This document shows, in pieces, positions 777-19,414 of a stretch of 64,000 nt of DNA (position 1 is the stretch's first letter; every line of letters begins with the position of its first letter). Source of the stretch: Alphaproteobacteria bacterium (GTDB taxonomy: Bacteria; Pseudomonadota; Alphaproteobacteria; CAAHEQ01; UBA3637); contig JAZUQR010000008.1 in NCBI GenBank assembly GCA_045605805.1, forward strand, positions 43,253 to 107,252, given 5' to 3'. The notes under the pieces are model-generated. The model searched no databases. It was not told the DNA's origin and worked only from the letters and a program-made list of their open reading frames with translations. The position numbers and the translations under genes were made by a program.

Positions 777-777
777 A

Positions 778-987
778 ATGACTGTTTATCACAAACTAAT
801 CAATGGCTTTATACTTAACAATTATGAATTAGGCGATATTACCGAAGAGGAAGCATTCGCACAAGGCTATAAAACGATCAATGAGCCACCACAAGACGGC
901 GAGGCTTATTGTGCCGAAAGCTTCAATGAGGGAGAACATCACATTGAGGTAAAATGGGTCGAATTCAAGGTTCCGGAGGAACAATGA
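778..987 (+). CDS. Small acidic phage protein, possibly a tail assembly chaperone
   Basis: 69 aa, GGAGA RBS, stop overlaps the next start (ATGA). Confidence 0.6.
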   Translation: MTVYHKLINGFILNNYELGDITEEEAFAQGYKTINEPPQDGEAYCAESFNEGEHHIEVKWVEFKVPEEQ

Positions 988-1526
988 CCGACAACACACT
1001 TTCGGAAGCATTAAAGGAAGCGTACGCCTCGGCCCCGAGTGATGTGATTTTGTTGCACACCTTGGAACTGAGGCACCCGACCTTTATTGATGACAACGGT
1101 AATCCGACAGCTATCCGGGTTGTGCGGGACCATATAAACCACACCTGTACGCTTGAAAACTCGGCTCCGCTTAACCCGGGCCAACCCGTTGAGTTCATCG
1201 CCATGGCCTTTGATTTGGAATTACCACCGGTCAATAACACGCCGACACCTGAAATTTCGGTCACGATTGATAACGTTTCAACAGAGATGATCTCTTATCT
1301 TGACCGGGCCGTAGAAACTCAGGACATGATTGAGCTGACATATCGGCCATATCTGTCTGATGACCTGACAACCCCGCAAATGGACCCGCCGATAACCTTG
1401 GTTATTACCGATATTCACGTGGACTGCTATAAAATTACAGCAACAGCCCGCATGATGGACATCGGCAACCGGTCCTTTCCGGGCGAGAATTACACCGTTA
1501 AAAAATATCCGGGATTAACACGATGA
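984..1526 (+). CDS. DUF1833-like phage tail protein
   Basis: ALKEAYASAPSDVILLHTLELRHP and YRPYLSDDL..P motifs; ATG at 984 preferred over 954. Confidence 0.8.
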   Translation: MTDNTLSEALKEAYASAPSDVILLHTLELRHPTFIDDNGNPTAIRVVRDHINHTCTLENSAPLNPGQPVEFIAMAFDLELPPVNNTPTPEISVTIDNVSTEMISYLDRAVETQDMIELTYRPYLSDDLTTPQMDPPITLVITDIHVDCYKITATARMMDIGNRSFPGENYTVKKYPGLTR

Positions 1527-1927
1527 CACATTTTGCTTGCAAATATATTGGTAAACCATGGGTGGCCGGCGCACAAGGCCCTGACCAGTTTGACTGTTGG
1601 GGAATGGTGCGCTGGATCCTTAAATATGAGTACGGCGTAGATGTGCCGGCGGTCAATGTCAATCCGGACAACTTAAGGAGTGTTTTGATCGCCTTTCGAG
1701 AGGATCCTGCTTTTCGGGCCTTTAAGGAAGTTCAAACACCGCAAGACGGCGATGTCGTTCTGCTTCGTCAATCAAAACATCCGGTTCATGCCGGCTTATG
1801 GCTTGATGCAGACGGCGGTGGAATTTTACATTGTTGCCGCGATGGCGGTGTTGTTTTTCAGGATTTGCCATCTATGCGCCTGTGCGGGTGGCAAATTGAC
1901 AGCTATTACCGAGTAAAAGGAAAATAA
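1523..1927 (+). CDS. NlpC/P60-family tail assembly protein (gpK-like)
   Basis: YIGKPW..G..GPDQFDCWG catalytic Cys motif, HAGLW and GILH. Confidence 0.85.
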   Translation: MTHFACKYIGKPWVAGAQGPDQFDCWGMVRWILKYEYGVDVPAVNVNPDNLRSVLIAFREDPAFRAFKEVQTPQDGDVVLLRQSKHPVHAGLWLDADGGGILHCCRDGGVVFQDLPSMRLCGWQIDSYYRVKGK

Positions 1928-4162
1928 ATGATTTACTTTTCACATATTACAAACCCTTTTCAGCCGAATAAGGGTCGGATAGATCGTGTCCTTGACGAAG
2001 GGAAAACGGTCTGGCAACTGGTCGAAGAACAGAAAGTTGACTTGAAACGCCCGACAATTTGTATGATCAACGGTGGTGCAGTCCTCAGAAAGTTTTGGAA
2101 CGACCTTGTTCAGCCAGATTCGCTTGTTTGCTTTATCACGCTTCCGGAAGGCGGTGGCGGCGGTAAATCCTCAAATCCAGTTCAGGTTGTTTTAATGGTC
2201 GCGGTTGTTGTTGCTTCCGTTTATACCGGTGGTGCTGTGGCGGCGGCCTATGGTGCTGTTTGGGGTGGTGTTGCGGCGGCGGCAGTTTCCATTGGCGGAA
2301 GCTTTCTTGTCAACACATTCGTTCCACCACCTAAGGCCTCTCTTAACGGGTCCGGCTCGGCCAACTCAATAGCGGCACAAAGTCCGACTTATTCCTTGCA
2401 AGCACAAGGTAATCAGGCCCGGCTTGGCAGTCCGATACCGGTTATTTATGGCCGACACCTGATTTATCCGGATTTTGCCAGTCAGCCTTATTACGGCTAT
2501 GCAAACGATGAACAATACACTTATCAAGTGCACTGCATCGGCCAAGGCTACTATGACATCGAGAAAATCCGGATTGAGGACACGCCAATCAGCTCGTTTG
2601 AAGAGATAACATATCAGATTATCAATCCGGGCGAGAAGAACACGCTCTTTCGTGATGATGTGGTAACTTCGCCGGAGGTTGCCGGACAAGAGCTTTTGAA
2701 AGGAAACACGATCGGGCCGTTTGTCTTAAACCCGACCGAAAGTGAAATTGACCGGGTGGAAATTGATGTTGCTTGTCAGCGCGGCCTTTATTACGCAAAT
2801 GACAGCGGCGGCCTGAACACAAAATCGGTTCAATGGCGCGTTGATGCCCGAAAAATTGATGATGAGGATAATCCCTTGGGTGACTGGTTCACTCTCGGGA
2901 CCGAAACATTGTCAGCCAATACGGTCAACGGTCTTTACCGGACATATGGTTATTCGGTGGCAAAAGGCAGATACGAAGTCCGGGCCACACGTTTAGATGA
3001 TAAAGATACATCTTCACGCGCTGGACATGAACTCCGTTGGGCCTCGGCAAAAGGCTTTATTGTATCAAATCCGAGTTACGGCGACGTAACCTTGCTCGCC
3101 ATTAAGATGAAAGCCACAAATAACCTGTCGCAACGTTCAAGCCGTATGGTTAACTGTATTGTGACAAGGAAGTTGCCGACCTGGTCACCGTCTGGTGGCT
3201 GGACCGGCAGAGTGCCGACACGCTCTATCGCCTGGGCAATAGCCGACATCTTAAAAGCTAACTATGGTGCAAGACTGACTGACAAGTCCATAGATCTTGA
3301 AGGTTTATACCGGCTGGATCAGATTTGGGCCGCACGGGGTGATACGTTTAATGCCGTCTTTGATTCCAAATTGACGGTTTATGATGCCTTGTCGCGAACC
3401 TGCAAAGTCGGACGTTCCGTTCCCTACATTCAAGGCGGCATTGTTCGCTTTGTCCGGGATGAGCCAAAATCAATACCGGTTGCATTGTTCGGGCCAAGAA
3501 ACATCGTCAAAAACAGCCTGACAATTCAATACATCATGCCCTCTGAAGATACAGCGGACAGCGTTTGTGTTCAGTATTTTTCGGACCGAACTTGGAAGAA
3601 CTCAGAGATAACCGGCAGTTTTGAAGGCTCCACCTCAGATAAGACGGCAACGGTTGAGCTTTTCGGTTGTACCGATAAAAACCAAGCTCTCCGGGAGGCC
3701 ATCTATATGGCGTTGGCTAACCGATATCGCCGGCGAATTGTGACATTTTCAACCGAATTGGAAGGTCTGATCCCGAGCTATGGGGATTTGATTTCCATTA
3801 CGCATGATATGCCGCATTGGGGTTCAGGTGGTGAAATCCTGTCAAAAAATGACATGACTTTAACGCTATCCGAGCCGGTTGAGTTTACCGAGGGCCAAAC
3901 TCACTATTTGGCTTTAAGAACTCGAACCGGGGAACTATCAGGACCGTACCGGGTAAAAGCCGGTTCGCTTCCGACTGAGGTTATTTTGCTAGATACTCCC
4001 GATATTCCTATCGATACCGGGACCGATGCAGAACGAACTCATTTTGCCTTTGGAACTCAAGACAAATGGGGAACATTAGCTCGTGTGACAGGGATTAAAC
4101 CACGCTCCGGCAAGGTTGAAATTACCGCCGTCATTGAGGACAACAGAGTTCACGCCAATTAA
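1928..4162 (+). CDS. Tail tip / host-specificity protein (gpI-like N-terminus plus gpJ-like domain)
   Basis: GNQARLGSPIPVIYGRH and TRSIAWAIADIL motifs; 744 aa; follows NlpC/P60. Confidence 0.85.
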   Translation: MIYFSHITNPFQPNKGRIDRVLDEGKTVWQLVEEQKVDLKRPTICMINGGAVLRKFWNDLVQPDSLVCFITLPEGGGGGKSSNPVQVVLMVAVVVASVYTGGAVAAAYGAVWGGVAAAAVSIGGSFLVNTFVPPPKASLNGSGSANSIAAQSPTYSLQAQGNQARLGSPIPVIYGRHLIYPDFASQPYYGYANDEQYTYQVHCIGQGYYDIEKIRIEDTPISSFEEITYQIINPGEKNTLFRDDVVTSPEVAGQELLKGNTIGPFVLNPTESEIDRVEIDVACQRGLYYANDSGGLNTKSVQWRVDARKIDDEDNPLGDWFTLGTETLSANTVNGLYRTYGYSVAKGRYEVRATRLDDKDTSSRAGHELRWASAKGFIVSNPSYGDVTLLAIKMKATNNLSQRSSRMVNCIVTRKLPTWSPSGGWTGRVPTRSIAWAIADILKANYGARLTDKSIDLEGLYRLDQIWAARGDTFNAVFDSKLTVYDALSRTCKVGRSVPYIQGGIVRFVRDEPKSIPVALFGPRNIVKNSLTIQYIMPSEDTADSVCVQYFSDRTWKNSEITGSFEGSTSDKTATVELFGCTDKNQALREAIYMALANRYRRRIVTFSTELEGLIPSYGDLISITHDMPHWGSGGEILSKNDMTLTLSEPVEFTEGQTHYLALRTRTGELSGPYRVKAGSLPTEVILLDTPDIPIDTGTDAERTHFAFGTQDKWGTLARVTGIKPRSGKVEITAVIEDNRVHAN

Positions 4163-4175
4163 GAAAGGACACATC

Positions 4176-4418
4176 ATGGATTGGATTCAATTTTTACAGA
4201 TCATCTGCGTACCGGCCTTTGGCTGGTTTTTTTATAAGCTCGGCGAACAGCGCAAAGAATTAAAAACTCTTGAGCGCGACCTCAACGAGTTCAAAGTTGC
4301 GGTGGCCAAAGAGTATGCCACTCAGGTTAACATCAATCGCCTGGAGACAAAGATTGATGAATTACATCAGCTTTTATGGGAGATGCACAATGAACACACC
4401 TCGCGGCATAAGAAATAA
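4176..4418 (+). CDS. Small membrane-anchored coiled-coil phage protein (holin/antiholin-like position)
   Basis: AAGGA RBS before ATG 4176; N-terminal hydrophobic segment MDWIQFLQIICVPAFGWFFY. Confidence 0.55.
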   Translation: MDWIQFLQIICVPAFGWFFYKLGEQRKELKTLERDLNEFKVAVAKEYATQVNINRLETKIDELHQLLWEMHNEHTSRHKK

Positions 4419-4797
4419 TAACCCCGGAAATATCCGGTGGGGATCGGACTGGAAAGGATTAAAAAAGGACGGAAAGCAACAGGATCCGTCCTTTTGTGTA
4501 TTTGAAACGCCTGAATATGGTATCCGGGCGTTGGCCAAATTACTCCGGAACTATCAGCGGCTTTATGGCCTGAACACGCCTTATCGGATAATCAGCCGGT
4601 ACGCGCCACCGACCGAAAACGAAACAGTTTCATATATTGACAGCGTTTCGTGGCAACTGAACATCACGCCGGACACGCCGGTCGACCTTTCGGAAGATGG
4701 TGTTTTGATGGTGTTTATAAAAGCAATCATTAGACATGAGAACGGCATACAACCATACTCTAATGAAACTCTATTGAAAGGAATTCAAATGGCATGA
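4390..4797 (+). CDS. Phage lysin (structural protein P5-like, lysozyme fold)
   Basis: TPRGIRNNNPGNIR, F..PEYGIRA, RYAPPTEN and AIIRHENG motifs. Confidence 0.8.
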   Translation: MNTPRGIRNNNPGNIRWGSDWKGLKKDGKQQDPSFCVFETPEYGIRALAKLLRNYQRLYGLNTPYRIISRYAPPTENETVSYIDSVSWQLNITPDTPVDLSEDGVLMVFIKAIIRHENGIQPYSNETLLKGIQMA

Positions 4798-5012
4798 AAA
4801 AGCGGCTTTGGATCCCGGTCCTCGGGTGGATCCTGTGCTACGGGTTTCTGCACAACTGCCTGATTTCGCCTATAACAGGCCTGCCGGTAGTGGACTGGGA
4901 GTATTTATTAACGGCCATGGGCATTTTACTCGGTGTCAGTGGCGTACGAGATATTGGGTTAAAGGAAAGGAAAAAACAAGATGTGGTATCAGATAACAAA
5001 CCTTTGGAATAA
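4794..5012 (+). CDS. Putative holin
   Basis: 72 aa with two hydrophobic segments, LLGVSGVR motif and basic tail; follows the lysin. Confidence 0.55.
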   Translation: MKKRLWIPVLGWILCYGFLHNCLISPITGLPVVDWEYLLTAMGILLGVSGVRDIGLKERKKQDVVSDNKPLE

Positions 5013-5202
5013 AGGTAAATACTGGATAATTGCCGGAGCGGTGGCCGTTTTATACATACTCGGCTATCGGCGCGGCAAGGAAAAAGAACAAGTCAAAGTA
5101 ATGAAAGGAACGGTGGACAATGTTAAAACAGCTAAGAATAGTCGGGACAGCCTGGCTGATCCTGAGCGCGTTAAGCGGTTGCACAACAAATATAAACGGT
5201 GA
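4981..5202 (+). CDS. Putative inner-membrane spanin (Rz-like)
   Basis: Single N-terminal TM segment plus basic helical region; overlaps the next lipoprotein ORF. Confidence 0.55.
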   Translation: MWYQITNLWNKGKYWIIAGAVAVLYILGYRRGKEKEQVKVMKGTVDNVKTAKNSRDSLADPERVKRLHNKYKR

Positions 5203-5314
5203 TTTTTGCCTTTTATATGAACCGGTGTATGCCGATTATGAGCATGATACCCCGGAAACGGTCCGTCAAATTGATAGAAACAATGTGATTTACGATGATT
5301 TATGTACAAATTAA
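5120..5314 (+). CDS. Putative outer-membrane spanin lipoprotein (Rz1-like)
   Basis: Lipobox LSGC; overlaps the Rz-like gene in another frame. Confidence 0.6.
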   Translation: MLKQLRIVGTAWLILSALSGCTTNINGDFCLLYEPVYADYEHDTPETVRQIDRNNVIYDDLCTN

Positions 5315-5411
5315 AAGATTTTGTTTGACTTTTCTTGCAAAAATGGCTCGAATCATAAGCGGAGGTGTCATGAACCTCTGTAATCTTAATATTAAGAAAG
5401 GAAAATTAAAC

Positions 5412-5684
5412 ATGAATAAAACTGAATTTGTTGAAGCAGTTGCTAAAGAAGCTAAAGCCTCTAAAGCCGCCGCAAATGAATTGGTAAACGCTGTTGTAGC
5501 TGTTGTTACAAAAGCATTGAAAAAAGGTGAATCAGTTCAAATCACTGGTTTCGGTACATTTGAAGTAGCAAAACGCGCCGCTCGTAAAGGTCGCAATCCT
5601 GCTACCGGTAAAGAAATCAAAATCCCGGCATCAAAAGCTCCTAAGTTCAAAGCCGGCGCAGTCTTGAAAAAAGCTGTAAAATAA
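5412..5684 (+). CDS. hup: HU family DNA-binding protein
   Basis: MNKTEFVEAVA...GFGTF...RKGRNPATG...PKFKAG; AAAGGA RBS before ATG 5412. Confidence 0.95.
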   Translation: MNKTEFVEAVAKEAKASKAAANELVNAVVAVVTKALKKGESVQITGFGTFEVAKRAARKGRNPATGKEIKIPASKAPKFKAGAVLKKAVK

Positions 5685-6022: not shown

Positions 6023-6463
6023 ATGGGCAAGATATGCTCGTTTTTTGGACACAGTCATTTATATGGACAATCGGACCGTATTGCCCAACAATTAAGGCAA
6101 GTCATTATCAATTTAATCGGACAAGGTGTTGATACCTTTTACGTTGGCAATCATGGTGAGTTTGATATTTTTGCCAGCCGGGTAGCCTATGATCTGAAAA
6201 GTTTATATCCTAACATCCAAATCATTGTTGTTTTATGTTATCCAAATGAGTTGCAATACTTAAAATGTGCCTTCACGGATTTTTTGATGCCTCCGGAAAT
6301 AGAAGCGGCCCCCAAACGGGCTTGCATTGTAACTCGCAATCATTGGGTTGCTGATAATTCTGACTACATCGTCTGCTTTATCAAATACAAAATGGGTGGA
6401 GCCTATGCGGCTATCGAATACGCCCAAAAGCACCATAAACAGATTATAGAGGTGAGAGCATGA
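6023..6463 (+). CDS. SLOG-superfamily protein (DUF1273/YpsA-like)
   Basis: CSFFGH, FYVGNHGEFD, RNHWVADNSDYIVC and GGAYAAIEYA motifs. Confidence 0.75.
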   Translation: MGKICSFFGHSHLYGQSDRIAQQLRQVIINLIGQGVDTFYVGNHGEFDIFASRVAYDLKSLYPNIQIIVVLCYPNELQYLKCAFTDFLMPPEIEAAPKRACIVTRNHWVADNSDYIVCFIKYKMGGAYAAIEYAQKHHKQIIEVRA

Positions 6464-6562: not shown

Positions 6563-7156
6563 ATGCGTAAAGATCAAGTCAGTCGTAATCAAAGAATTCA
6601 TATGCCCAGGAAGGTAGAAAACGTTTCGGGGCAATTAATGCTACCTGTGGATGTTGCTTCTGTAAAGCAAGCATTTGCAACAGCTAATGACAAACGATTT
6701 AAATATGCTGATGCGCTGGATCAAGCAACCAAAGAAGATCCGGAATTGCATCAAATTTCAACAATTCCAAGCGATTCAAGCGAATTAATTGTTATAACGA
6801 AACTTAAAAAACTGGGGGCTTATATTCTAGCCGTGACGGTTAAATCGCCGGCCAAATTTAGACCTGTTTTTATCAATCGGATGCAAAATTACAGCTTGTC
6901 GGCTTTGGAAAATTTATTGAATGCTAATTTTATTCGGATGGATAGCCCCGAACATAAAGCCCAGCGAGAAAAGCATCAAACGGATGCACTCATTCAGTTA
7001 AAAATGGTGGCATATGTTGCAATGCTGTCGGAAAATGCAAAGTGTATTTTGATGAGGCAGTATAAACAAATATCAATTCAGGTTGGTGAAATTATTAACC
7101 TGATTATGGCATGGAAAAAAAGTGATGATAAACAATGGCAAACAAAAAAGTTTTGA
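6563..7156 (+). CDS. avd: DGR accessory variability determinant (Avd-like four-helix bundle) with N-terminal extension
   Basis: ELIVITK...KSPAKFR..FINRMQN...AN...EIINLIMAWKKSD pattern; sits directly before TR and RT. Confidence 0.85.
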   Translation: MRKDQVSRNQRIHMPRKVENVSGQLMLPVDVASVKQAFATANDKRFKYADALDQATKEDPELHQISTIPSDSSELIVITKLKKLGAYILAVTVKSPAKFRPVFINRMQNYSLSALENLLNANFIRMDSPEHKAQREKHQTDALIQLKMVAYVAMLSENAKCILMRQYKQISIQVGEIINLIMAWKKSDDKQWQTKKF

Positions 7157-7195: not shown

Positions 7196-7314
7196 TTGTG
7201 CCTCTTGGTCCGCGTCTTCAAATGAAAATGAAAACGTGCGTTGCGTCAACTATAAGGGCGATAAGAACTGGAATAACACGAATAAACGTAAAATCTCGGC
7301 GCGCCCCGATTTGC
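7196..7314 (+). repeat. DGR template repeat (TR)
   Basis: 119-nt ungapped match to 8822-8940; all 23 differences are at TR adenines; rich in AAC/AAT codons. Confidence 0.97.
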
Positions 7315-7569: not shown

Positions 7570-8619
7570 ATGAAGATAGAAGAGATATTTACATTTGAAA
7601 ACTTGGTTGCGGCCCACAAAGCATGTCGGCTGAGTAAGCAACATAAACGAGGAACAATCATGTTTGAAATTGAATTGGGGCGTAATGTCACCAATCTGGT
7701 CAAACAATTGACGGCTAGAACATATCGTTTAAGTCCTTACAGATCCTTTACCATTTATGATCCGAAGAAAAGATTAATTGAAGCGTTACCCTACAAAGAC
7801 AGAGTGGTTTTAATGTGCTTTTGTCAGCATTCGGTAGCTCCCCGGCTAGAGAGACACCTGATTTATGACAATGCCGCTTCACGCAAAGAAAAAGGAACGC
7901 ATTTTGCGGTAGAGAGATTGCATTCATTTATGCGAAAGCTGTACATCAAAAACAAAACAAATCGGATTTATTTTTTGAAATGCGATATCAGGAAATATTT
8001 TCAAAGCATCAATCATGAGATTTTATTGGAACTGTTGGCCAAGACCGGTTTTTCGGCTGATGAGATGTGGTTTTTAAGGATGATCATTGAATCACACGGT
8101 TCCATCGGGTTGCCTTTGGGTAATCAGACCAGCCAATGGTTTGCCTTGCTTTATTTGAACGGAATGGACAGGCTGATTAAAGAACGTCTGCGTATGTCCT
8201 GTTATGTGCGCTATATGGATGATTTTGTTATCCTAAGCGAAGATAAAGCCAAATTACAGCTGTGTAGAAAGCAAATTGATGAATATGTCAAAGGATTAAA
8301 GCTGTCCTTAAATCAAAAGACACAAATCGGGCTGTTATCGGATGGTATTGATTTTTTGGGATTTAACCACAAATTATCGGCCACAGGTAAGATTATCAAA
8401 TCTTTGCGTGGATCGGCCAAAAGCCGCCAAAGAAAATACCTGAAAACCATCCGTCATTACTATTTGAATGATGTCCTGGATGATGAGTACCTAGACGTCC
8501 GTTTAGCCTCGTTTCGCGGGCATTTAAAGGGGACTAAGAACTGGATCCATATCAGCAACCGCTTGGCTTCCTTAAAACACGAGAAACGCCGTACAAAAAA
8601 AATTGTTGCAGAACAATAA
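7570..8619 (+). CDS. DGR reverse transcriptase
   Basis: IYDPKKRLI, KCDIRKYF, GLPLGNQTSQ (DGR-type SQ), YVRYMDDF and GIDFLGF motifs; no maturase or endonuclease domain. Confidence 0.95.
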   Translation: MKIEEIFTFENLVAAHKACRLSKQHKRGTIMFEIELGRNVTNLVKQLTARTYRLSPYRSFTIYDPKKRLIEALPYKDRVVLMCFCQHSVAPRLERHLIYDNAASRKEKGTHFAVERLHSFMRKLYIKNKTNRIYFLKCDIRKYFQSINHEILLELLAKTGFSADEMWFLRMIIESHGSIGLPLGNQTSQWFALLYLNGMDRLIKERLRMSCYVRYMDDFVILSEDKAKLQLCRKQIDEYVKGLKLSLNQKTQIGLLSDGIDFLGFNHKLSATGKIIKSLRGSAKSRQRKYLKTIRHYYLNDVLDDEYLDVRLASFRGHLKGTKNWIHISNRLASLKHEKRRTKKIVAEQ

Positions 8620-8663: not shown

Positions 8664-10613
8664 ATGGACTTTACGTTTTTGAAGGAAGATCAGATATGGG
8701 GCGATGGTGCCCTAGATGTAATGAAGCGTTATGGCACGAAGGTTGCGCCAACGGATCTGACAGTCATATTGGGTGGTTATATGACTGGTGGAGGTGATCG
8801 TACTTCTGAAGATGATCTAACTTGTGCCTCTTGGTCCGCGTCTTCAGATGGACATGGAGGCGTGCGTTGCGTCCGCTGTGAGGGCGATGAGCACTGGGGT
8901 GGCACGCATGGACGTGTGATCTCGGCGCGCCCCGCTTTGCCTCCATCGGAGGCATCTAAAATCAGCCCGAGCGAAGCGAGAGCTATCGCTGGAATCCGCG
9001 TAGCGGAATATGGGGAATACCCGCAAACGGTCGCCGATGAACGCACCAGCGAGAAATTAGAAAGATTACATGATTCAAGATCTCTCCGTCCGACCGGAAA
9101 AAATTACACATTTGATTCAGTTGGTTTAACCGATTATGACACGTCTTTTAAGGCCACATCCTATCAGGAATATGAAATGGATGGCAAAAGGTATATCCGC
9201 GTTCCTGGACGGCCTGCTGACGACGATAGCAAACTATCTACTGGGGAACAGGTAGAGTCCGGAAAACCCTACTGGGTTGAGGTCCAACCGATAGAATGGC
9301 TGATGGATAGAAGCGGCACAATGGTCGCCAAAAAATGCTTATTCGCCGGTATTCAATTTGATACAAAGAGCTCATATGACGGTGACTTCTCTAAAACGTC
9401 CATGAAACACTATTTGGACACTTATTTTGCCAAAGAAATGGAGCCAACCGGACGTGTGGCCGCAAGAACGGTATCAAGAGACTATGAAGAAGAGCCGGAA
9501 AGAAAAGAACCCGTTAAAAAGAAAGAACCGACAGCCAGACAGAAGAAATACGGGATCGAGGTATCTGATGAGCCTATGCCCGTCAAGGACCAAATAAACT
9601 TCTATATTCAAAACGGAATGAGCTTCATGCTCCATGGCCCGTCCGGTGTCGGTAAATCACAACGTGTGAAAGAAATTGATCCGGATTTGACCTCAATTAC
9701 GCTGTGTAACGGAATTTTGCCTGAAGATGTTATCGGTAAAACAATCTATCCAAACGGCGTGGGAGCCGATGGGGCCTCCGGTGGTGTTTGGGTGCCGCCT
9801 AAGTGGTACACGGATTTGTGCAGAAAATGCGAAACAGAACCGGACAAACAGCACGTCTTATTTATCGATGAAGTGACCAATGCGCGTGAAACAACACAAA
9901 GTTTGATCTATCACGTAGCGTTGGAAAAATCAATTGCCCAGGGCGTTGGCAAACTGCCTAATAATGCTGTGGTCGTATTGGCCGGTAACAGCAAGGAAGA
10001 ATCAGGAGCCGCTTATAACATGCCGGCCCCGTTGTTCAGACGTTTAAGCCATATTTACTTGGACTTGAATATTCAGGATTGGTTGGAATGGGGCTCGGAA
10101 CACAGCAAGAGCCATCCGGAAGATCCGGATCGCTTAAACATCCATCCATTAGTCGCCAGTTTTGTGGCAACCTACGGACGGCAAGTGTTCTATTCCGAGT
10201 ATGATGAAGAAAACCCCGGCAAGTTTGCACTTGACCCACGAAAATGGGAAAAAGTATCAGATAAAATCTACGCTAATAAGGGTATGATGCGCCGTGAGAT
10301 TTTGGAAGCTGATATCGGGCCTGAGTTGGCGGCCAGTTTGTTGTCTTATGCTAAAAATCCGCCGCTATCCCTGGAAGAAGTGATTGAGGGCGAATATACC
10401 CGCGAGGATATTCCTACGGGACAGGATGCCCGTTTGGCGTTGGCGTTGAGTTTGCGTCATGCAACACCGAAACAAGTCGGGAAAGTACGTCAATTTGTTG
10501 AAACACAGTTAGGCGCAGAAAATCGTGCGATTTTTGACTCTGTTTGGGTGGGCAAGGATGATACACGCGCCATGCAGATTGCCACTTTACATAACTTAAA
10601 GGGAGGAAGATAA
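8664..10613 (+). CDS. DGR target: N-terminal variable lectin-like (DUF6273-like) domain fused to a MoxR/AAA_5 ATPase
   Basis: VR at residues 54-92; YGEYPQT and PIEWL motifs; Walker A GPSGVGKS, Walker B VLFIDE, LAGN, PLFRRL. Confidence 0.9.
   Translation: MDFTFLKEDQIWGDGALDVMKRYGTKVAPTDLTVILGGYMTGGGDRTSEDDLTCASWSASSDGHGGVRCVRCEGDEHWGGTHGRVISARPALPPSEASKISPSEARAIAGIRVAEYGEYPQTVADERTSEKLERLHDSRSLRPTGKNYTFDSVGLTDYDTSFKATSYQEYEMDGKRYIRVPGRPADDDSKLSTGEQVESGKPYWVEVQPIEWLMDRSGTMVAKKCLFAGIQFDTKSSYDGDFSKTSMKHYLDTYFAKEMEPTGRVAARTVSRDYEEEPERKEPVKKKEPTARQKKYGIEVSDEPMPVKDQINFYIQNGMSFMLHGPSGVGKSQRVKEIDPDLTSITLCNGILPEDVIGKTIYPNGVGADGASGGVWVPPKWYTDLCRKCETEPDKQHVLFIDEVTNARETTQSLIYHVALEKSIAQGVGKLPNNAVVVLAGNSKEESGAAYNMPAPLFRRLSHIYLDLNIQDWLEWGSEHSKSHPEDPDRLNIHPLVASFVATYGRQVFYSEYDEENPGKFALDPRKWEKVSDKIYANKGMMRREILEADIGPELAASLLSYAKNPPLSLEEVIEGEYTREDIPTGQDARLALALSLRHATPKQVGKVRQFVETQLGAENRAIFDSVWVGKDDTRAMQIATLHNLKGGR
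8822..8940 (+). repeat. DGR variable repeat (VR)
   Basis: Copy of the TR with 17 A>G, 5 A>C and 1 A>T changes altering 16 codons. Confidence 0.97.
8938..8954 (+). promoter_or_regulatory. Hairpin/cruciform at the VR 3' end (DGR target-recognition element)
   Basis: TGCCTCC-ATC-GGAGGCA perfect 7-bp stem after GC-rich TCGGCGCGCCCCG; absent after the TR. Confidence 0.7.
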
Positions 10614-10614
10614 A

Positions 10615-11079
10615 ATGTCATTAAAAGAAATACTCGAAAAAAGTCGGAAAAAACGCAAGAATGGCTTAGTCATTGGGCCTGATATAGGATGGCTTGGTCC
10701 GAAACCCGCCCGAACAAAAGCCGAAAAGATTAATCAAATCAAAACGGAATTTATTGATGATAGAGCTTTGTTGATTGTCGGAGCTAAAGCATCCGATTTT
10801 GCAGAATATCCGAAGATAGAGGCTGATATCTCAGTTCAACGTTTGATTCAATATATGGATACGTTTGAAAAAACGGAAGATCATAAAGGTTTCTTGGTCA
10901 TTGATGGGTTAGACAATATACCTGAATCTGAACAGGAAAAGTTTGTCCCCTTGTTAAAAGATCGGCAGATTTTATCCAGTAAGCTGCCAAATGAAGTTCA
11001 AATTTTGGTTCCTGTGAAAAAAATTGAAGACATTTCAAAAAGGATAAAATCTCTGATATTTCCTCTGAAGGTGGTATAA
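10615..11079 (+). CDS. Degenerate stand-alone AAA-like protein
   Basis: WLGPKPARTK (broken P-loop), FLVIDGLD (Walker B-like) and KLPNEVQILV parallel motifs of the upstream ATPase. Confidence 0.6.
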   Translation: MSLKEILEKSRKKRKNGLVIGPDIGWLGPKPARTKAEKINQIKTEFIDDRALLIVGAKASDFAEYPKIEADISVQRLIQYMDTFEKTEDHKGFLVIDGLDNIPESEQEKFVPLLKDRQILSSKLPNEVQILVPVKKIEDISKRIKSLIFPLKVV

Positions 11080-12926
11080 TGATCAAAGATGTTTTAAAAC
11101 AACAAGAAGAAATTCAATATATCAAGGAACAGGTTTTAGCCAAGTTTCCCTTACTTGGTGTGACGATGATGCCTTTGTCGGTTGTTCCTGATGATAGAAT
11201 TGGGACAGCGGCCACGGATGGACATAAAATTATCTATTCTCCAAAGTTTTTTAACACCTTATCGGACGAACAAAAACAATTTGTCTTTGCGCATGAAGTG
11301 ATGCATGTCGCTTTTAACCATATTTTGCGCAGTAAGGGTCGTAATCAAAGATTGTGGAATATCGCAACCGATTCTGTTATCAACCAAATCTTGAAAAATG
11401 AAAAATTGCCATTAGCGGAAGGTGGCGTTGATATTGCAGAAGCTGTCAATCATTCGGCCGAGGAAATGTACGAAAAACTTTTGAAAAAGAAAGAACAGCG
11501 CGATCAGGAAAAACAGCAAAATCAAGAGCAAGATCAACAGCAACAACAATCACAATCCGGTGGGACGGACCAGCCTCAGGATCAGGATGCACAAAATCAG
11601 CCTGAACAGGAACAACCTCAGGATCAAGACGGACAAAATCAATCCGGACAAGACCAGCCTCAGGATCAAGACGGGCAAAAGGGACAAGAACAATCCGATC
11701 AACAATCAGACGGTTCAGAAAATCAAGATGAACAAAACAAAAATTCATCAGAAGGCTCGGAAGGATCCGAACAACAGAAAGATCAATCTCAAGATGGTGA
11801 TTCAAACTCTGAACAAAACAGTTCTTCCGGTCAGGGAGACGAAAATCAATCTGATTCAAATTCCGAACAATCAAGCGACAATCAACAAGGATCCTCTAAA
11901 CCTCAAAAAGGTGGTCAACGTTCGCAATCCGGTTCTTCCTCTCAATCAGAAGACACCGACTGGGATGACAGCAATATCGATTGGGACAATGAAGATGAAC
12001 AAGTAGGCCACGATACACATGATATTTGGAAAGAAGCAGTTGAGCAAGCAGAACGTGAAGAACAACGAAAACAGGAAGCATCCAAAAAGAAAAGTTTATG
12101 GGATAAACTAAAAGAGAACATGGGGCAAAAAGAAGTTAAAGAGGATCAGCAAGGCGAACCTCAAGAAAAAGAAGCTCCTGTACCGCAAGATGAAAACATG
12201 GATGCGTATGAAAAAGGCTTCTTGGCAGAAAATCAAGAAAAACGTCATGAGATGGCCGAACAGGTGCGCGAACAATTAAACAGGATAAAAGGAAGCCTCC
12301 GTCAATCAAATGATCATACCACAGTCGGGGATGTTGGGGAAACTCAAACGCCGGTGGTTGATTGGAAAAAAATGCTTAAAAAATCTTTTGATGAAGAGCG
12401 TGATCGTTGGTCCTATCGTCGTTCCGGTTCTGAAAACGACTATATGGCTCGGGTAGAAGAATTGGAAGATGAAGGCCGTCCGGATACTGAGGTTATGTTG
12501 GATGTCAGCGGTTCTGTAAATATCCGCTTGTTACGTGAATTTTTAAGACAACTTAAACCGTTACTTAAATCCTCTAAATTAAAGGTCGGTTGCTTTGATG
12601 AGTTTGTTTATGATTTTAAAGAAATAAAGACAAAAGAAGATATTGATCATTTTCAAATTACGGCAACATCTCAATGGACTGAAAACTGGGATGCGGCTGT
12701 CCGGGCATTTTCTAAGAAAAAAGAAGTGAATAAAATTATTTTTACAGACGGATATCCATGCCCAGGAACAATGCCTAAAGAAGATTTAAAGGGTAAGAAT
12801 GTTATTTGGATAGTTTATGGAAATAAAGATTTTAATCCATGCTGTGGTAAAGTCATCCAGGTTTCTGAACGACAACTTCAGTCGTATATTCAGACGGCCG
12901 CTCCACTTTCTAGAGGTGGAAGATAA
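11079..12926 (+). CDS. DUF2201-like protein: HEXXH metallopeptidase domain, Q/D/S-rich linker, vWA domain
   Basis: TAATDG, AHEVMHVAFNH, WNIATD.VIN; MIDAS DVSGS and FTDG; TAATG overlap with the upstream gene. Confidence 0.85.
   Translation: MIKDVLKQQEEIQYIKEQVLAKFPLLGVTMMPLSVVPDDRIGTAATDGHKIIYSPKFFNTLSDEQKQFVFAHEVMHVAFNHILRSKGRNQRLWNIATDSVINQILKNEKLPLAEGGVDIAEAVNHSAEEMYEKLLKKKEQRDQEKQQNQEQDQQQQQSQSGGTDQPQDQDAQNQPEQEQPQDQDGQNQSGQDQPQDQDGQKGQEQSDQQSDGSENQDEQNKNSSEGSEGSEQQKDQSQDGDSNSEQNSSSGQGDENQSDSNSEQSSDNQQGSSKPQKGGQRSQSGSSSQSEDTDWDDSNIDWDNEDEQVGHDTHDIWKEAVEQAEREEQRKQEASKKKSLWDKLKENMGQKEVKEDQQGEPQEKEAPVPQDENMDAYEKGFLAENQEKRHEMAEQVREQLNRIKGSLRQSNDHTTVGDVGETQTPVVDWKKMLKKSFDEERDRWSYRRSGSENDYMARVEELEDEGRPDTEVMLDVSGSVNIRLLREFLRQLKPLLKSSKLKVGCFDEFVYDFKEIKTKEDIDHFQITATSQWTENWDAAVRAFSKKKEVNKIIFTDGYPCPGTMPKEDLKGKNVIWIVYGNKDFNPCCGKVIQVSERQLQSYIQTAAPLSRGGR
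11568..11693 (+). repeat. Three imperfect 42-bp tandem repeats in the linker
   Basis: DQPQDQDAQNQPEQ / EQPQDQDGQNQSGQ / DQPQDQDGQKGQEQ. Confidence 0.75.
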
Positions 12927-12968: not shown

Positions 12969-15551
12969 TTAATATAAATTAGCCTCAAAAATTTGATAAA
13001 GGTCAAATTCTATACCGTCAACGCCTCTGATGAGGTCTATTTCATCTTCGGCGGCGACATCAATTCGGGCCTGATCTAAAAACAAGCCTTCTTCTTTTCG
13101 TTTAAGCTCTTTTTCAGCGACATTCAGCTGTTTTTGAATTCTTAATTCCGTGAGCCGGTCTGAAGCGGAGGATATTGTCTCACGAATTTTTTTAACCTCT
13201 TGCCTTGCTTCTGAAATGTTTTGCTCTAGGACAGATTTTTGGCGGCTGGCTTTTATTTTAATTAAATCAACATCCGTATCAAACTTTTTGGTATAATCAT
13301 TTACATAACGTTCCTTAAGGTCGCGCTGGATGCGTGTATCTAACAAATCTCGCGATGAACCGCCAGTCGTTTTTAGCCAATACGGATTCCTCTTTTCTTC
13401 AGCTATAAATTCACTAACCGGTTGATTGATAATTTTTTGGCATTCCTCATCAGTCATGAGCCGTCCATCAGGTGTCGTACCAACCAAAATGTCATACTCT
13501 GATAAATACTGCCGGCGGCGATTACGTAAGACGATGTTATAGAACTTTATATTGCATTTTTCTGTTGGCTCAACGGTTTTAATGTCCGCTTTGTCAGAGC
13601 ATGATATTTCTTGTAAAATACCACGAACAAGCACGGATGTTAAAGTGATGCGCCCTGCGACCGGCTTAAAATCTTTACTCATTCCATAAGTCCTGCGACC
13701 GGTGTATGGCACATTTCTTGTGCCGGTGTAATAGTAAAACATGTGCGGCAATTCTTCATCGTCCGGTAAAGTCAGCGTTTGATTGAAGTCATCGATCACA
13801 TATTCCGGATGCTTTGTCGCAAAATAAAACTTCACAACTTCCCATAAATCTTTATTCAAGAACTCCGCTTGTTCCTCTATGTATTTCGGCGAAACGGACA
13901 CTTTCTCGGCAATATCTTTGGTAAAAGTGGTAAAGAGAGAACTTTCAGCCGCTGAAACAATGCGCTCATTCGGTTCGCGGTTTACTTCCAAGTTTGTTTC
14001 CATATCTGCGCGTATATCACTAAGCGTGCGGCGTTTTTGCAAAACATCTTCCAGTTTAACATCAAAATTACCGACAATATCGTCCGACATACCAAAAATG
14101 CCTTCAAATTGCAGGGTACGCTTGTTTATCAGCTCCAAAATACGGACATCCGAGATATTTTCTTTGCTTAAAAGATTGATAACTAAAACATCGGATTGCT
14201 GGCCTTGTCGGTGGCAACGACAGATACGCTGTTCCATTTCCACGGCGTTATAAAGTAAATCATAGTTAACCACAACTGGACAATATTCAATATCCAAGCC
14301 TTTGGCCATAGCATCACTACAAATTAAAATTTGCAAATCTTTTTCTGCCCGAAAACGTGGCAGAGCATCATTTTCTGTATGCTTGATGACATTATATCCG
14401 GCGGTTTTAAGCAAATTTGCCAAAACTGGCACGGTGGCAAGATTATCCACGAACACAATCGCTTTTTGTGTTTCTTTACGCAATTTTAAGTGTGCAAATG
14501 TCGTTTTAATAGCTTTTAGAAATTCTTCCATTTTGGCGGTTTGCGTAATTTTTGCCGCCATATCGCGCATTGATTCCAAAATAACACGTTCATCGCCTTG
14601 TGTTCGCTCAATAGGTGCTTCCAACATTGTGGCAAATGCTTGTGGTGATGAGGCCAAAATGTGGTAAAACATCAAAGTCAGTTGATAATTATCCATTTGC
14701 GGATAAGCCTGCTTTTCAGCTAAATTTAAGTATTTTTCGGTTAAATCATAAATTTTCTTTTCATCATCTTTTGGTACGTAGTTCAAAACAATCGGTAAGC
14801 GACGTGTAAAGTTTACATACTGGCTCGCTTGGCTTTTAAGGGTACGAAAAGCGAATTGTGATACCCAATTTGATAGTTCTGGATAGTTTTCGGGCTTTCT
14901 GAAATACCGGCGATAAAAACTGTCAGGATCCGGCAGAACGCTTTCATCAATAAAATGTATCAATCCGTAAATATCCATGATACTCATTGTGATCGGCGTT
15001 GGCGTTAAAAGCAGTTTGAAAGCATCGCCGACAGCACCCTTAATGGTTGCAACTGATTTATTGTCCGGCTTAAAAAGAAAATCAGCCTCATCAAACACGG
15101 CCAAATCCCAACGAATGCTTTTGACTTTTTCTGCCTCACGGATAACATCATCGTATGTGACAAGGCAAATACCTTTACTATCGGCAGTATATTCGGCCCA
15201 TTTGATAACCGGCAAGGTGAACTCTTCATCAAGTTTTTGTTGCCATTGTGCCATAAGGTTTTGGGGTAAAACAACCAATATATGTTCTTTTCCCTCGTAC
15301 CAACGTTGAACTACTACAAGCAAAGCCTCATAAGTTTTACCGAGTGAGCCTTCATCACATAAAATGCAACCTTTAATCAACCTAGATCGCAGGGCAAAAC
15401 GGGCCGCGGCTATTTGATAAGGTAATACTTTAATTTTTGAAGAAGCATAAACCGCCAGTAAATTATCGTCATCGCGAAAACTGGCCAATCGTCTGGCTTC
15501 CACCATAGCGGCAAATTCGGATACAAAACGATACGGCTTAGTCTCTTCCAT
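12969..15551 (-). CDS. SNF2-family helicase-like protein with degenerate motifs
   Basis: LPYQ, CDEGSLGKT, FDEAD, LLTPTP, VVNYDL and EQRICRCHRQGQ motifs. Confidence 0.8.
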   Translation of the reverse strand: MEETKPYRFVSEFAAMVEARRLASFRDDDNLLAVYASSKIKVLPYQIAAARFALRSRLIKGCILCDEGSLGKTYEALLVVVQRWYEGKEHILVVLPQNLMAQWQQKLDEEFTLPVIKWAEYTADSKGICLVTYDDVIREAEKVKSIRWDLAVFDEADFLFKPDNKSVATIKGAVGDAFKLLLTPTPITMSIMDIYGLIHFIDESVLPDPDSFYRRYFRKPENYPELSNWVSQFAFRTLKSQASQYVNFTRRLPIVLNYVPKDDEKKIYDLTEKYLNLAEKQAYPQMDNYQLTLMFYHILASSPQAFATMLEAPIERTQGDERVILESMRDMAAKITQTAKMEEFLKAIKTTFAHLKLRKETQKAIVFVDNLATVPVLANLLKTAGYNVIKHTENDALPRFRAEKDLQILICSDAMAKGLDIEYCPVVVNYDLLYNAVEMEQRICRCHRQGQQSDVLVINLLSKENISDVRILELINKRTLQFEGIFGMSDDIVGNFDVKLEDVLQKRRTLSDIRADMETNLEVNREPNERIVSAAESSLFTTFTKDIAEKVSVSPKYIEEQAEFLNKDLWEVVKFYFATKHPEYVIDDFNQTLTLPDDEELPHMFYYYTGTRNVPYTGRRTYGMSKDFKPVAGRITLTSVLVRGILQEISCSDKADIKTVEPTEKCNIKFYNIVLRNRRRQYLSEYDILVGTTPDGRLMTDEECQKIINQPVSEFIAEEKRNPYWLKTTGGSSRDLLDTRIQRDLKERYVNDYTKKFDTDVDLIKIKASRQKSVLEQNISEARQEVKKIRETISSASDRLTELRIQKQLNVAEKELKRKEEGLFLDQARIDVAAEDEIDLIRGVDGIEFDLYQIFEANLY

Positions 15552-15554
15552 AAT

Positions 15555-18500
15555 TTACACCGTTTTCTTAAATTCCTGCCAATTTCTGACCGGCTGTTCG
15601 GAGTAGATAACATTATCAAGAGCTTTGAAGTGCTGTGCGCCGCAATGAATCTTTTGTTGTTCTTCCGGTCGCAGGCCATAGAACGAATCAGTTCCTTTGG
15701 TTTCAAGCACGAAATAAAGTTTCTGTTCGCCATTTTTCTCTAAATATACGGCCCAGTCCGGATTATAGGTTCCAATAGGTGTATCAATCTTAAACCGGCT
15801 TGGAATTTTAAAGAACATTTTAACGTCAGGATCCTCATCCAAAGCCACGGCAAACGGCTTTTCAACCGTGCTACTGTCATAAATAACATAGTCATAAACG
15901 CTGTTTTTAACCGCGACAGCATTACGATCGAGGTTAGCAATCAATTCTTCACTCGAGAAAATCTCTTGCACGGCATATTCTTCGCCGGCCAATTTAATAT
16001 ACTTAATTCCATCAATGGCCAATGCATGGCGATTGCGCTGGATGATCTCCAAAACCTTTTCGTAAAAGTCTTGTGGGTTCTTCAAAAAGTCTCCGGCCCG
16101 GCTGCTTTCTTGAATGATTTTATTCACGGTCGAACGTTTCAGCAATGTTTTGGTAGAGATTAAACGCAAAATATCCGGCAGAACATCATAGCTCTTTTCC
16201 AGGTTTTGGGTAAACATCGCACCGGCTTGGGCGGTTACGCCTGACTTTTGAATATCAACCGAGGCTGTCTGACTGAGTAAACGGGCCGAAGCAATCTCCG
16301 GCATCTTACGAATATCCTTGATACTGTCGGCGATCAGTTTATCTAAATCAAACTGGACCCGATAAGTGGTCTTTTGCTTAATTTTATTCCACAACTCCAT
16401 AAATTCCGGTGATAATAGCGCACGTTTATTGAGTTTTACCGTTACATCCTTGGAAGCATCGCGGATGTTGAGCTTATTATCAGCCTTGTTCATGGACTGC
16501 AAAATTGCACGTTGCGCGGCTTTTGACCAACGCTCACTTAAATTGAGTGTACCGGCCGCAAGCTGTGCCTTCATGGTGTCTTTAATCTTGTTCTTGCTGT
16601 CAATAACCTTTTTATCTTTCAGCTCATCCATAATCGCGGCCGCTTCCTCATACGAGAAGGTCTTTTTCTCAACAACAGTTTCTTTATATGTTGTATTAGC
16701 AAGCGCGGCAACCGACACCGGCTTTGAAGTTTTGATCATATCTTGAACATGTGTTTTTACAGGTTCAGGCATGGGGATATTTTCGATTTTAATTTCTTCC
16801 GGCTTAACTTCCGGTTTAATGTAGCCACCATCATCAATTAAGCCATATTTTTGTAAATCTTCAACAATAGCGGTGGCCTCGCTTTCGCTGACTCTACGTT
16901 CAACTTCTACTTCTTCATCGTAAGAATAGCCGACAAGCATATCCAACTCGAAAACGCCAAATTTAACACCGGTTTCATCTTCAATTTCTTTCTGTAATTT
17001 ATCGGCAAACTCGGCAAAACTTTCGTTGGCGATAACGTGCAAAACATTGATGTTCTTATCCTCAATCCGTTCTCCGTCCTGATTAACGCAAAGTCTTAAG
17101 CCACGACCGATTTTTTGACGGCAGGTAAACAGCGATTTTTGCTCGATCAGCGTGCAAACTTGGAAGACATTCGGATTATCCCAACCTTCTTTTAAGGCAG
17201 AGTGCGAGAAAATAAAGCGGAGCGGACATTCAAACGACAACAGCCACTCTTTATCTTTCATGATGGTATTGTAGGTGTCGTCATCAGCCTGCGTATCGCC
17301 TTTGGTATCCTTATATTTACCTTTTTTATCTTGGGAGAAGTAACCGTTGTGTGCTTTGTTTACGTCTGTATCGAACTTGGTTTTTAGCTCAGCGTAACGT
17401 GGTTTATTGATCAGTTCGTTATAGCATTCTTCGAACATTTTGGCATAAATACCTTTGCCGCCATCCTCAGTGCGGTATTTTTTAACCTCATCAATAAAGA
17501 ACAGGGACAACACCTTAATTCCCATATCAAAATAGCGTAATTCCTTATCTAAATGGGTTTTAATGGTCTGATAAATTTGCGCACGTTTCAAAACTTTTTC
17601 ATCAACGCTACCGATGGCTTTACCCAGGGCAACATATTCCGAGTTTGCAAATTCCACACCCTCAAGGCCTGATGTACAATCAATCCCTGAAACAACATAG
17701 CCTTCATAAATTTTGCGATGGCCGGATTTGATAAACAGATCATCGTCCGGTTTAACCGTTATAACTTTACGCGTAATATGAGCGTTGTCGTCTTCCACAT
17801 CAATTTCCAGTTTGGCCGAAAAGCCGTTGGCGTTTGAAACGTTCTTTAAGGCGATATAGGGTTTGTTTGAATCATTGATAACTGAATTTGAAATAACGCA
17901 AATCTGTTTTACTAATCCCAGTTGATACGCATCAACTGGTGTTAAACGATAGACAAGATTCTGCTTTTCGCGGTGGGTAGCGGAATAACGCAACACGCAC
18001 AGCGGATTAAGCATCGCGATGGCTTCCTTTGCCTTTGGCGTATTATCAACACTTTGCGGTTCGTCAATAATCACAACCGGATTTGTGTCCTGAATATAGC
18101 GCATAGCGGTTTCGCCGTTCAGTTTATCTTGCTCTTGATTGATAATGTTTTCGGCCTTTTTGAAAGCATCGATGTTGATGATCATGATTTCAATGTTGCT
18201 GGAAGTTGCAAAGGCTCGCACATCAGAGAGCTTGGCCGAATTATAAATAAAGTAGCGGTACGGCACACCGTCATATTGATTTTTGAAATACTCTTCCGTA
18301 ACCTGAAACGACTTGTTTACACCTTCGCGAATTGCTACACTCGGTACAACAATGATGAACTTTGTAAAACCGTAGCGGTGGTTAAGCTCCAAAATTGTTT
18401 TTGTATAAACGAAAGTTTTGCCGGTTCCGGTTTCCATTTCAATTGAAAGCGGCACCGCCTTTATGCCGTCAATGTTGGTTTGCGGCAGAGAATGAGCCTT

Positions 18501-19405: not shown

Positions 19406-19414
19406 CGTCCACCT

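Follow-up and report, generated by a model that had tools for sequence, protein, structure and literature searches.

The targets of diversity-generating retroelements (DGRs) are usually recognised through a C-terminal lectin-type domain, and in the prototype variable proteins, Mtd of Bordetella phage BPP-1 and TvpA of Treponema denticola (PDB 2y3c), the variable repeat (VR) lies at the extreme C-terminus of a sequentially ordered fold. The locus considered here raises the question of how a VR can come to lie near the other end of its protein. It is part of a 64,000-nt stretch (the window) from an Alphaproteobacteria bacterium (GenBank assembly GCA_045605805.1, contig JAZUQR010000008.1, positions 43,253 to 107,252 of the forward strand), in which a DGR target of 649 amino acids (aa) has its VR at residues 54-92 and continues into an ATPase. 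The original prediction explained this position by circular permutation of a domain like DUF6273 (Pfam PF19789), a lectin-fold domain of gut Firmicutes and their phages that is a frequent DGR target, and that is a bacterial and phage branch of the C-type-lectin fold commonly diversified by DGRs. At the level of sequence profiles this explanation is well supported, by half-matches in reversed order and by the effect of rotating the alignment; the accompanying suggestion, that the permutation freed the C-terminus for the ATPase, is not supported.

The DGR is complete in the window: a bAvd-like gene, the template repeat (TR) and the reverse transcriptase (RT) gene, with the target open reading frame (ORF) directly downstream.

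6563..7156, + strand: bAvd-like DGR accessory protein, 197 aa (Pfam bAvd, E 1.1e-5, 26.3 bits, cut-off 40 bits; NCBIfam DivGenRetAVD, E 5.4e-5, below cut-off)
7196..7314, + strand: TR, 119 nt with 36 adenines, a direct repeat with 8822-8940
7570..8619, + strand: DGR RT, 349 aa (Pfam RVT_1, E 9.6e-20; PADLOC RT, E 7.6e-34)
8664..10613, + strand: DGR target, 649 aa (ORF translation)
8822..8940, + strand: VR, 119 nt, residues 54-92 of the target, with diversified codons 62-91

The two accessory-protein matches are weak and under their cut-offs, yet both span the full model length. TR and VR differ at 23 positions, every one of them at a TR adenine (23 of the 36; 17 A>G, 5 A>C, 1 A>T), and the differences alter codons 62-91, nearly all of them hitting the first or second codon position. 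Beginning with the third base of codon 53, the VR extends to the first base of codon 93 and ends in ISARPAL; its predicted extent was confirmed from the ORF translation and the TR/VR repeat. The features that define a DGR, an adenine-specific TR/VR pair with an adjoining RT and an Avd-type accessory gene, are all present.

Two further VR copies, 87% and 84% identical to the TR and changed almost exclusively at TR adenines, lie in the same genome outside the window (G000:C7:99-217, + strand; G000:C1:8-126, - strand, the latter with one T>G change besides). Both sit at contig ends (L101, L102, L105, L106). The C7 copy belongs to a 317-aa stand-alone paralog which has a charged tail instead of the ATPase, and whose DNA is 92.6% identical to window 8724-9439 before it diverges into that tail; the C1 piece comprises the N-terminus and VR only. 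The DGR therefore has at least two targets in its own genome, and the assembly breaks at the VRs.

A 7-bp hairpin (GCCTCC.. / ..GGAGGC, 3-nt loop; window 8938-8954) is found at the VR 3' end, inside the coding linker PPSEAS, and is reminiscent of the hairpin known to follow VRs in other DGRs. The idea that it serves as a recognition element was rejected, as it is limited to the window and near-identical relatives (5 of 12 VR ends) with no covariation, and it is not used as evidence here. In five related loci (L019, L032, L033, L045, and L055, at ~6200-6280 in each) in-frame stops in the VR interrupt the target ORF. The stop in L019 is TAG where the TR has AAG, as expected from adenine mutagenesis, and the frame also shifts; in L032 and L045 it is TGA where the TR register reads TAA.

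Read from its N-terminus, the target has the motifs FTFLKEDQ (residues 3-10), ASWSAS (55-60), the end of the VR, YGEYPQT (116-122), PIEWL (209-213), and TSMKHYLDTYF (245-255), in the order that had been proposed. Canonical DUF6273 was found at E<=1e-5 in none of 301 genomes sampled from the window's phylum, so comparators were taken from Clostridia, where 68 of 251 sampled genomes have the domain at E<=1e-12, nearly all matches being colinear over most of the model. The 34 domains extracted give the consensus W.VL - LR.WLN..F - VFLLS..E - WWLRSPG - GVRPA.W. The canonical order given in the original prediction was compared with this consensus: its "G.YPQ" is missing from it, and several members have "FG.Y" right before W.VL. 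Canonical DUF6273 is often tandem, for example with several matches inside single open frames of 937-1248 aa.

Two half-matches in reversed order had been expected from a search with the Pfam DUF6273 model (gathering score 23.5 bits). The window protein itself gave none (see below), while relatives gave weak ones and profile-profile alignment gave both halves. Among 79 relatives, three have matches at E<=0.01, all half-length and in reversed order: residues 44-85 of P0079 align to profile positions 126-168 (24.0 bits, the sole relative to reach the cut-off) and residues 45-95 of P0141 to 118-168, and residues 242-290 of P0051 to 20-67. At E<=0.1 the model finds 7 of the 80 members of the family alignment (these relatives and the window sequence). 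A six-frame search of the window's own genome with DUF6273 found nothing.

Exactly the expected pair of reversed half-matches appears when the profile of the 80-sequence family alignment is compared by hhalign with the canonical alignment, which has 192 columns. Residues 2-91 align to canonical 91-173 (score 50.6, P 5.1e-7, probability 92.4), with FTFL in register with VFLLS, TDL with the tdyA helix, SWSAS with WWLRS, and RPAL with VRPA; an independent profile comparison repeats this half (residues 25-101 to 112-184, E 5.1e-7). Residues 208-255 align to canonical 5-54 (score 33.9, P 2.2e-4, probability 45), with PIEWL matching W.VL, and the YLDTYF helix matching LR.WLN.eF. When the family alignment is doubled, one colinear match runs over the junction (208-270 followed by 1'-91') onto canonical 5-173, with a score of 73.8 and P 1.3e-9. 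A scan of 18 cut points of the family alignment against the canonical set gave the following:

Native order: 78 columns, score 48.7, P 1e-6
Cut after residues 105-195 (all 7 such cuts): 140 columns, score ~72.7, P 1.7e-10

The rotated alignment covers canonical 5-173 of 192. A single colinear DUF6273 match, which would have spoken against a permutation, is absent in the native order, and appears only after rotation or doubling. The family is homologous to DUF6273 at profile level, without sharing its colinear segment order, and the target itself does not reach the Pfam gathering score. As a lead only, 20 of the 30 matches listed by an ESM Atlas feature search are DUF6273 clusters (score 0.91).

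Structure prediction is consistent with this. For residues 1-280 with the 80-sequence alignment, AlphaFold2 (AF2) gives one confident domain (predicted local distance difference test, pLDDT, 96.2; predicted template modelling score, pTM, 0.92); the canonical control, with its 34 sequences, reaches pLDDT 92.5. Correspondence of elements was read by eye from the two models against the hhalign mappings. The first half shows, in both models, a bridge (at FTFL in the target) and two short helices, then a strand, another helix, and four strands, the VR hairpin among them (canonical 95-178); the second half has in both two strands, a long helix and a further helix, the long PIEW strand, second strand and YLDTYF helix corresponding to canonical 9-60. 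The predicted elements thus follow the canonical order, rotated. A colinear search with Foldseek gave no significant lectin match for the permuted model, a DUF6273 phage protein (E 0.12) and the lectin-like chain 1jwi_B (E 0.59) appearing only at weak E values. For the canonical control, 33 of the 38 rows listed are chains which, judging by their names, we take to be C-type-lectin, FGE or link-module proteins, at non-significant E values of 0.14-1.1; TvpA is among these weak matches. The control also finds 9qa6 (E 1.7e-6), the N-terminal domain of which is called DUF6273 in PMC12402451. This contrast between the models is what a non-sequential topology predicts, although it is not proof of one, and a C-type-lectin fold for the target domain is inferred from homology and modelling.

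Together, the alignments and the model suggest the following layout for the target:

8664..8939, + strand: first permuted segment (residues 1-92), equivalent to the C-terminal half of canonical DUF6273, with FLLS-like strand, helices, WWLRS-like strand, variable hairpin, and RPAL strand
8940..9281, + strand: linker (residues 93-~110), YGEYPQ strand (111-123), and a lineage-specific insert of ~85 aa, from the AF2 model, with no hhalign counterpart
9282..9440, + strand: last permuted segment (residues ~207-259), equivalent to the N-terminal part of canonical DUF6273, with PIEW strand, second strand, and YLDTYF helix
9441..10613, + strand: helix leading out of the domain (residues 262-275), then a divergent AAA+ ATPase, probably MoxR/AAA_5-like by weak Pfam matches

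Residues 93-207 would then consist of a linker joining the old C-terminus to the old N-terminus, plus the insert, in which AF2 places a helix at 126-137 and strands at 142-151, 164-172, and 175-181. The insert hairpin "EYE..GK.YIRV" (window 9140-9270, residues ~160-202) aligns repeatedly, though weakly, with plant proteins of the hemopexin fold (3oyo, E 0.0019; 6ix1, E 0.016), probably a chance likeness of motifs.

From all of this, the probability that residues 1 to ~260 are a compact, circularly permuted DUF6273 homolog, with a VR hairpin diversified by the DGR, and with a fused form that probably acts as a cytoplasmic ligand sensor, is put at roughly 0.8. A number of results pull the other way. 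The second half-match (P 2.2e-4, probability 45) is weak when taken alone, and ~115 target residues (93-207) have no canonical counterpart. Pfam DUF6273 has no match at E<=10 on residues 1-649, 1-280, 1-99, or 100-280 of the target, and a search of PDB sequences with the family profile did not find the DUF6273-bearing chain, its only yield being low-complexity noise and the weak alignments of the insert to hemopexin-like chains (E 0.0019). All 34 canonical comparators come from a single bacterial class, Clostridia. An earlier comparator set of 97 tentaclin-type sequences, taken from the 120 listed homologs and nd4 itself (length >=250 aa), later replaced by the broader Clostridia set, finds the VR half only, whether by hhalign (residues 52-95 to 181-226, P 5e-5, probability 67.5) or by hmmsearch (<=16 bits). 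For the permuted model no colinear Foldseek match reached E<=1e-3, the best being 0.079 in PDB and 0.065 in BFVD; this null is expected for a permuted topology, but would fit a different fold too. On the side of function, the Pfam matches of the ATPase part (AAA_16, AAA_3, AAA_5; E 0.002-0.008) are all below cut-off, and the PADLOC defence models have no convincing match to the ATPase or to the 154-aa and DUF2201 proteins encoded after it (below), only Avs1b at E 5.5e-4 to the 154-aa protein.

One alternative that draws on these points is partial homology: the VR-bearing residues 1-95 would derive from the C-terminal half of a DUF6273/lectin domain, grafted onto an unrelated beta-rich domain (100-260), the likeness of PIEW and YLDTYF to the canonical motifs being due to chance or convergence. 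The weakness of the second half-match, the unmatched residues 93-207, the absence of any lectin from the colinear Foldseek search and the limitation of the tentaclin-type comparison to the VR half would all fit. The weak match, however, coincides with just that canonical region which complements the first one, in the register expected of a permutation, and rotation merges it with the first half, so that the score climbs from 48.7 to 72.7 and 140 columns are aligned instead of 78. Pfam independently aligns the C-terminal part of the relative P0051 to this same complementary region, and the AF2 model (pTM 0.92) is one rigid unit whose matched elements agree with the canonical one. Grafting is accordingly considered unlikely.

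If the domain is a permuted one, it should be possible to ask how old the permutation is, and what it travels with. A phmmer search with residues 1-280 retrieved 1545 representative clusters at E<=1e-3 (323 at E<=1e-30); the permuted unit is colinear over residues 1 to ~265. Most of the 150 best representatives are stand-alone proteins of 260-400 aa, and 12 carry the ATPase. In nine representatives there are two or three tandem copies, each a whole permuted unit (model 2-265). Counting the target with these 150, 124 of 151 proteins have the domain start (model position <=5) inside their first 30 residues. A profile search of genome contigs with a 19-sequence alignment found 58 loci, mostly in uncultured gut or rumen Alphaproteobacteria with some metagenome-assembled genomes (MAGs) of Bacilli and Clostridia, and the same domain start is seen across these three classes; the window's own genome has 1.21 Mb and a completeness of 98.85%. 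Among phage records the family is all but missing (no tblastn match in 50,697, at E<=1e-3 or E<=10), and it is rare in IMG/VR (one locus). In 10 of 12 related loci examined, a TR/VR pair (74-119 nt) maps to the corresponding N-terminal position, and most of its mismatches fall on TR adenines; of the other two, L055 has only a 39-nt match, and L009 none. No conserved partner was found for the stand-alone members, the 38 flanking ORFs in 19 loci being unrelated housekeeping genes. The permuted form of DUF6273 is a large family of which Pfam recognises few members, and the permuted unit is an evolutionary module that is mostly stand-alone, sometimes tandem, and ATPase-fused in a minority.

These counts bear on the proposal that a real permutation was favored by selection because a free C-terminus could then be fused to the ATPase. 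In its favor, DGR-linked MoxR-vWA systems are reported to keep all other domains strictly N-terminal to the lectin-type (FGS) domain (PMC7159879), while here the order is inverted, with the exit helix (262-275) running straight into the ATPase. Canonical DUF6273 already has C-terminal fusions, though: the nd4 tentaclin has an unpermuted domain at ~12-226 of 542 with other domains downstream, and an IgA peptidase has one at 31-322 ahead of its M64 peptidase (PMC12402451). The 12 ATPase carriers among the 150 best representatives have been mentioned; of 59 related loci (the 58 genome loci and one IMG/VR contig), 23 have a fused or adjacent ATPase, and in L057 the lectin-like and ATPase genes are separate. 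Because canonical C-terminal fusions exist, and most permuted members have no ATPase, the permutation is neither needed for nor tied to C-terminal fusion; it looks older than, and independent of, the ATPase. Selection for a free C-terminus is thus quite improbable as its cause.

Still less credible is an artefact of annotation or assembly, in which the canonical first half would lie upstream (through a missed start, an RT frameshift or a truncated tandem pair) and the permutation would be only apparent: one representative, P0072, does have its halves in canonical order (model 80-264, then 2-77), some fragments begin mid-domain, and contigs of the window's genome break at VR copies, but the RT ORF stops at 8619, translation of the target from its ATG at 8664 leads at once into the FTFL motif, the near-N-terminal start recurs in most family proteins and in all three classes of genome loci, and tandem proteins repeat the whole permuted unit, so that P0072 reads as a fragment of such a tandem.

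In the window the fused ATPase is followed by two further genes of the same strand:

10615..11079, + strand: conserved 154-aa partner protein (weak matches only: Pfam NPHP3_N, E 0.003; PADLOC Avs1b, E 5.5e-4)
11079..12926, + strand: DUF2201_N metallopeptidase and DUF2201 vWA-like protein, 615 aa (Pfam DUF2201_N, E 2.6e-29; DUF2201, E 5.3e-7; both above cut-off)

The vWA-like domain of the latter scores 30.2 bits against a cut-off of 26.4. Between its metallopeptidase and vWA-like domains there is a long low-complexity linker rich in Q, D, S, and E (residues ~140-300, window 11500-12000). The ATPase translation contains "GPSGVGKS" and "FIDEVTNA", which we take to be its Walker A and Walker B motifs; PDB sequences gave no match to the ATPase part alone or to the full-length family profile. 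Over the 59 related loci, besides the 23 with an ATPase, 20 have a DUF2201 homolog; the 154-aa homolog follows the ATPase gene in 14, the RT is directly upstream of the target in 12, and Avd is upstream of the RT in 11. ATPase fusion, 154-aa protein, and DUF2201 peptidase-vWA protein are a conserved module. One of these loci, L057 from a Bacilli MAG (244-5255), has two tandem stand-alone permuted genes (276 and 277 aa), then separate genes for the ATPase, a small protein, and a DUF2201 protein. The target opens directly with its domain, and no hydrophobic leader is visible at the N-terminus of the translation; it is for this reason probably cytoplasmic.

The surroundings of the module are mixed. 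Adjoining it on the - strand (window 12969-21280) is a defence-type block with a DrmD-like SNF2 helicase (PADLOC, E 1.3e-76), a type III restriction enzyme (E ~1e-296), an unassigned 231-aa ORF, and a type III methyltransferase (E 1.6e-193). On the other side, prophage tail-end genes (DUF1833, NlpC/P60, and a GpJ-like tip protein; window 954-5684) are followed, upstream of the DGR (including 6023-6463), by small membrane-like ORFs, an HU protein, and a SLOG/YpsA-like protein. SLOG occurs in 4 and HU in 6 of the 59 related loci, and both travel with the DGR in its closest relatives. Beyond ~22 kb, where core genes (MreB, MreC, PBP2, RodA) start, GC skew lies between +0.23 and +0.34, up from about -0.04, which may reflect merely gene orientation.

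DUF6273 itself is among the closest known systems. The permuted family shares its motif set, near full-length profile homology (140 columns after rotation), the position of the VR on the same strand-hairpin-RPAL segment, and the occurrence of tandem copies; it differs in its swapped halves, in the added insert (~85 aa) and linker (~20 aa), and in taxonomic range, given the 0 of 301 genomes with canonical DUF6273 in the window's phylum against 68 of 251 in Clostridia. Tentaclins are likewise DGR targets with an N-terminal lectin-like domain, domains downstream of it, and the VR on a surface beta-hairpin. The nd4 domain, however, is colinear with DUF6273 (profile 1-171 at ~12-226), with its VR at ~170-226 rather than 54-92, and tentaclins are phage proteins with Ig domains, whereas the permuted family has no match in the phage records, and neither the target nor its 79 relatives have a Pfam match to Ig or Fn3. 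With Mtd and TvpA the target has in common the adenine-specific diversification of what would be a lectin-fold surface; it has no detectable sequence similarity to them, and its VR position and permuted order set it apart.

The DGR-linked MoxR-vWA (VMAP) ternary conflict systems (Kaur et al., 2020, PMC7159879; Dore et al., 2024, PMC10907252) are the closest described ones to the fused form. Their lectin-type (FGS) domain is reported to be strictly C-terminal, in most cases as part of the vWA protein. They too have a lectin-type domain diversified by a DGR in a cytoplasmic NTPase-vWA gene set with a peptidase, for which sensing of invaders has been proposed; their MoxR ATPase has a gene of its own, they include a VMAP protein, and they occur in multicellular cyanobacteria, gammaproteobacteria and similar hosts. 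The window has a vWA-domain partner, with no C-terminal FGS lectin domain on it. Unlike those systems, it has a permuted DUF6273-type domain at the N-terminus of the ATPase itself, a DUF2201 metallopeptidase as the vWA partner, and hosts that are small-genome gut or rumen Alphaproteobacteria and Bacilli. No VMAP was recognised, the 154-aa protein having no match above noise in Pfam, NCBIfam, or PADLOC, which include no VMAP-specific model. A literature search, judged for the most part from its result listings, found no published circular permutation of a C-type-lectin fold in a DGR target (the "circularly permuted" of one match concerns genomes), and "permut" occurs in neither the Tentaclin paper nor Dore et al. 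(2024).

How the domain might be built and work can be set out as a model. The canonical chain runs from a W.VL strand through the LR.WLN..F helix, VFLLS strand, a further helix, and WWLRS strand to the variable hairpin and a GVRPA strand. The permuted chain would instead start at FTFL (the VFLLS equivalent), and pass through SWSAS (the WWLRS equivalent) and the VR hairpin to RPAL, from which a linker of ~20 aa would lead to the old N-terminus (YGEYPQ), the ~85-aa insert, and last the PIEW strand and YLDTYF helix; the exit helix would then lead from the permuted domain into the AAA+ ATPase. Since canonical DUF6273 is often tandem, the permutation most likely arose by duplication into a tandem array, then deletion. 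Adenine mutagenesis by the upstream Avd-TR-RT rewrites codons 62-91, which would vary a surface hairpin of the lectin-like fold, and in the fused form, probably a DGR-diversified cytoplasmic ligand sensor, the ATPase may couple ligand binding by the permuted domain to the peptidase-vWA partner.

The finding allows many DGR targets with an "unknown N-terminal domain" to be reclassified, as the 1545 matching representative clusters indicate. It also implies that the diversified hairpin tolerates altered chain connectivity, a property of use in the engineering of binders based on DGRs. Through the fused form, the known association of DGRs with MoxR-vWA conflict systems comes to include an arrangement with the sensor on the ATPase and a DUF2201 peptidase-vWA partner, and its hosts come to include unicellular gut and rumen bacteria with small genomes. 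More speculatively, and with considerable doubt, the permuted scaffold might invert the rule of the C-terminal lectin altogether, the domain with its front hairpin serving either as a stand-alone binder or, at the N-terminus of an AAA+ ATPase, as a sensor of antigens, with a metallopeptidase-vWA protein as the effector driven by the ATPase; this would amount to an adaptive-like, DGR-programmed form of intracellular recognition in gut and rumen Alphaproteobacteria and Bacilli of small genome size, in which one TR serves several sensor paralogs.

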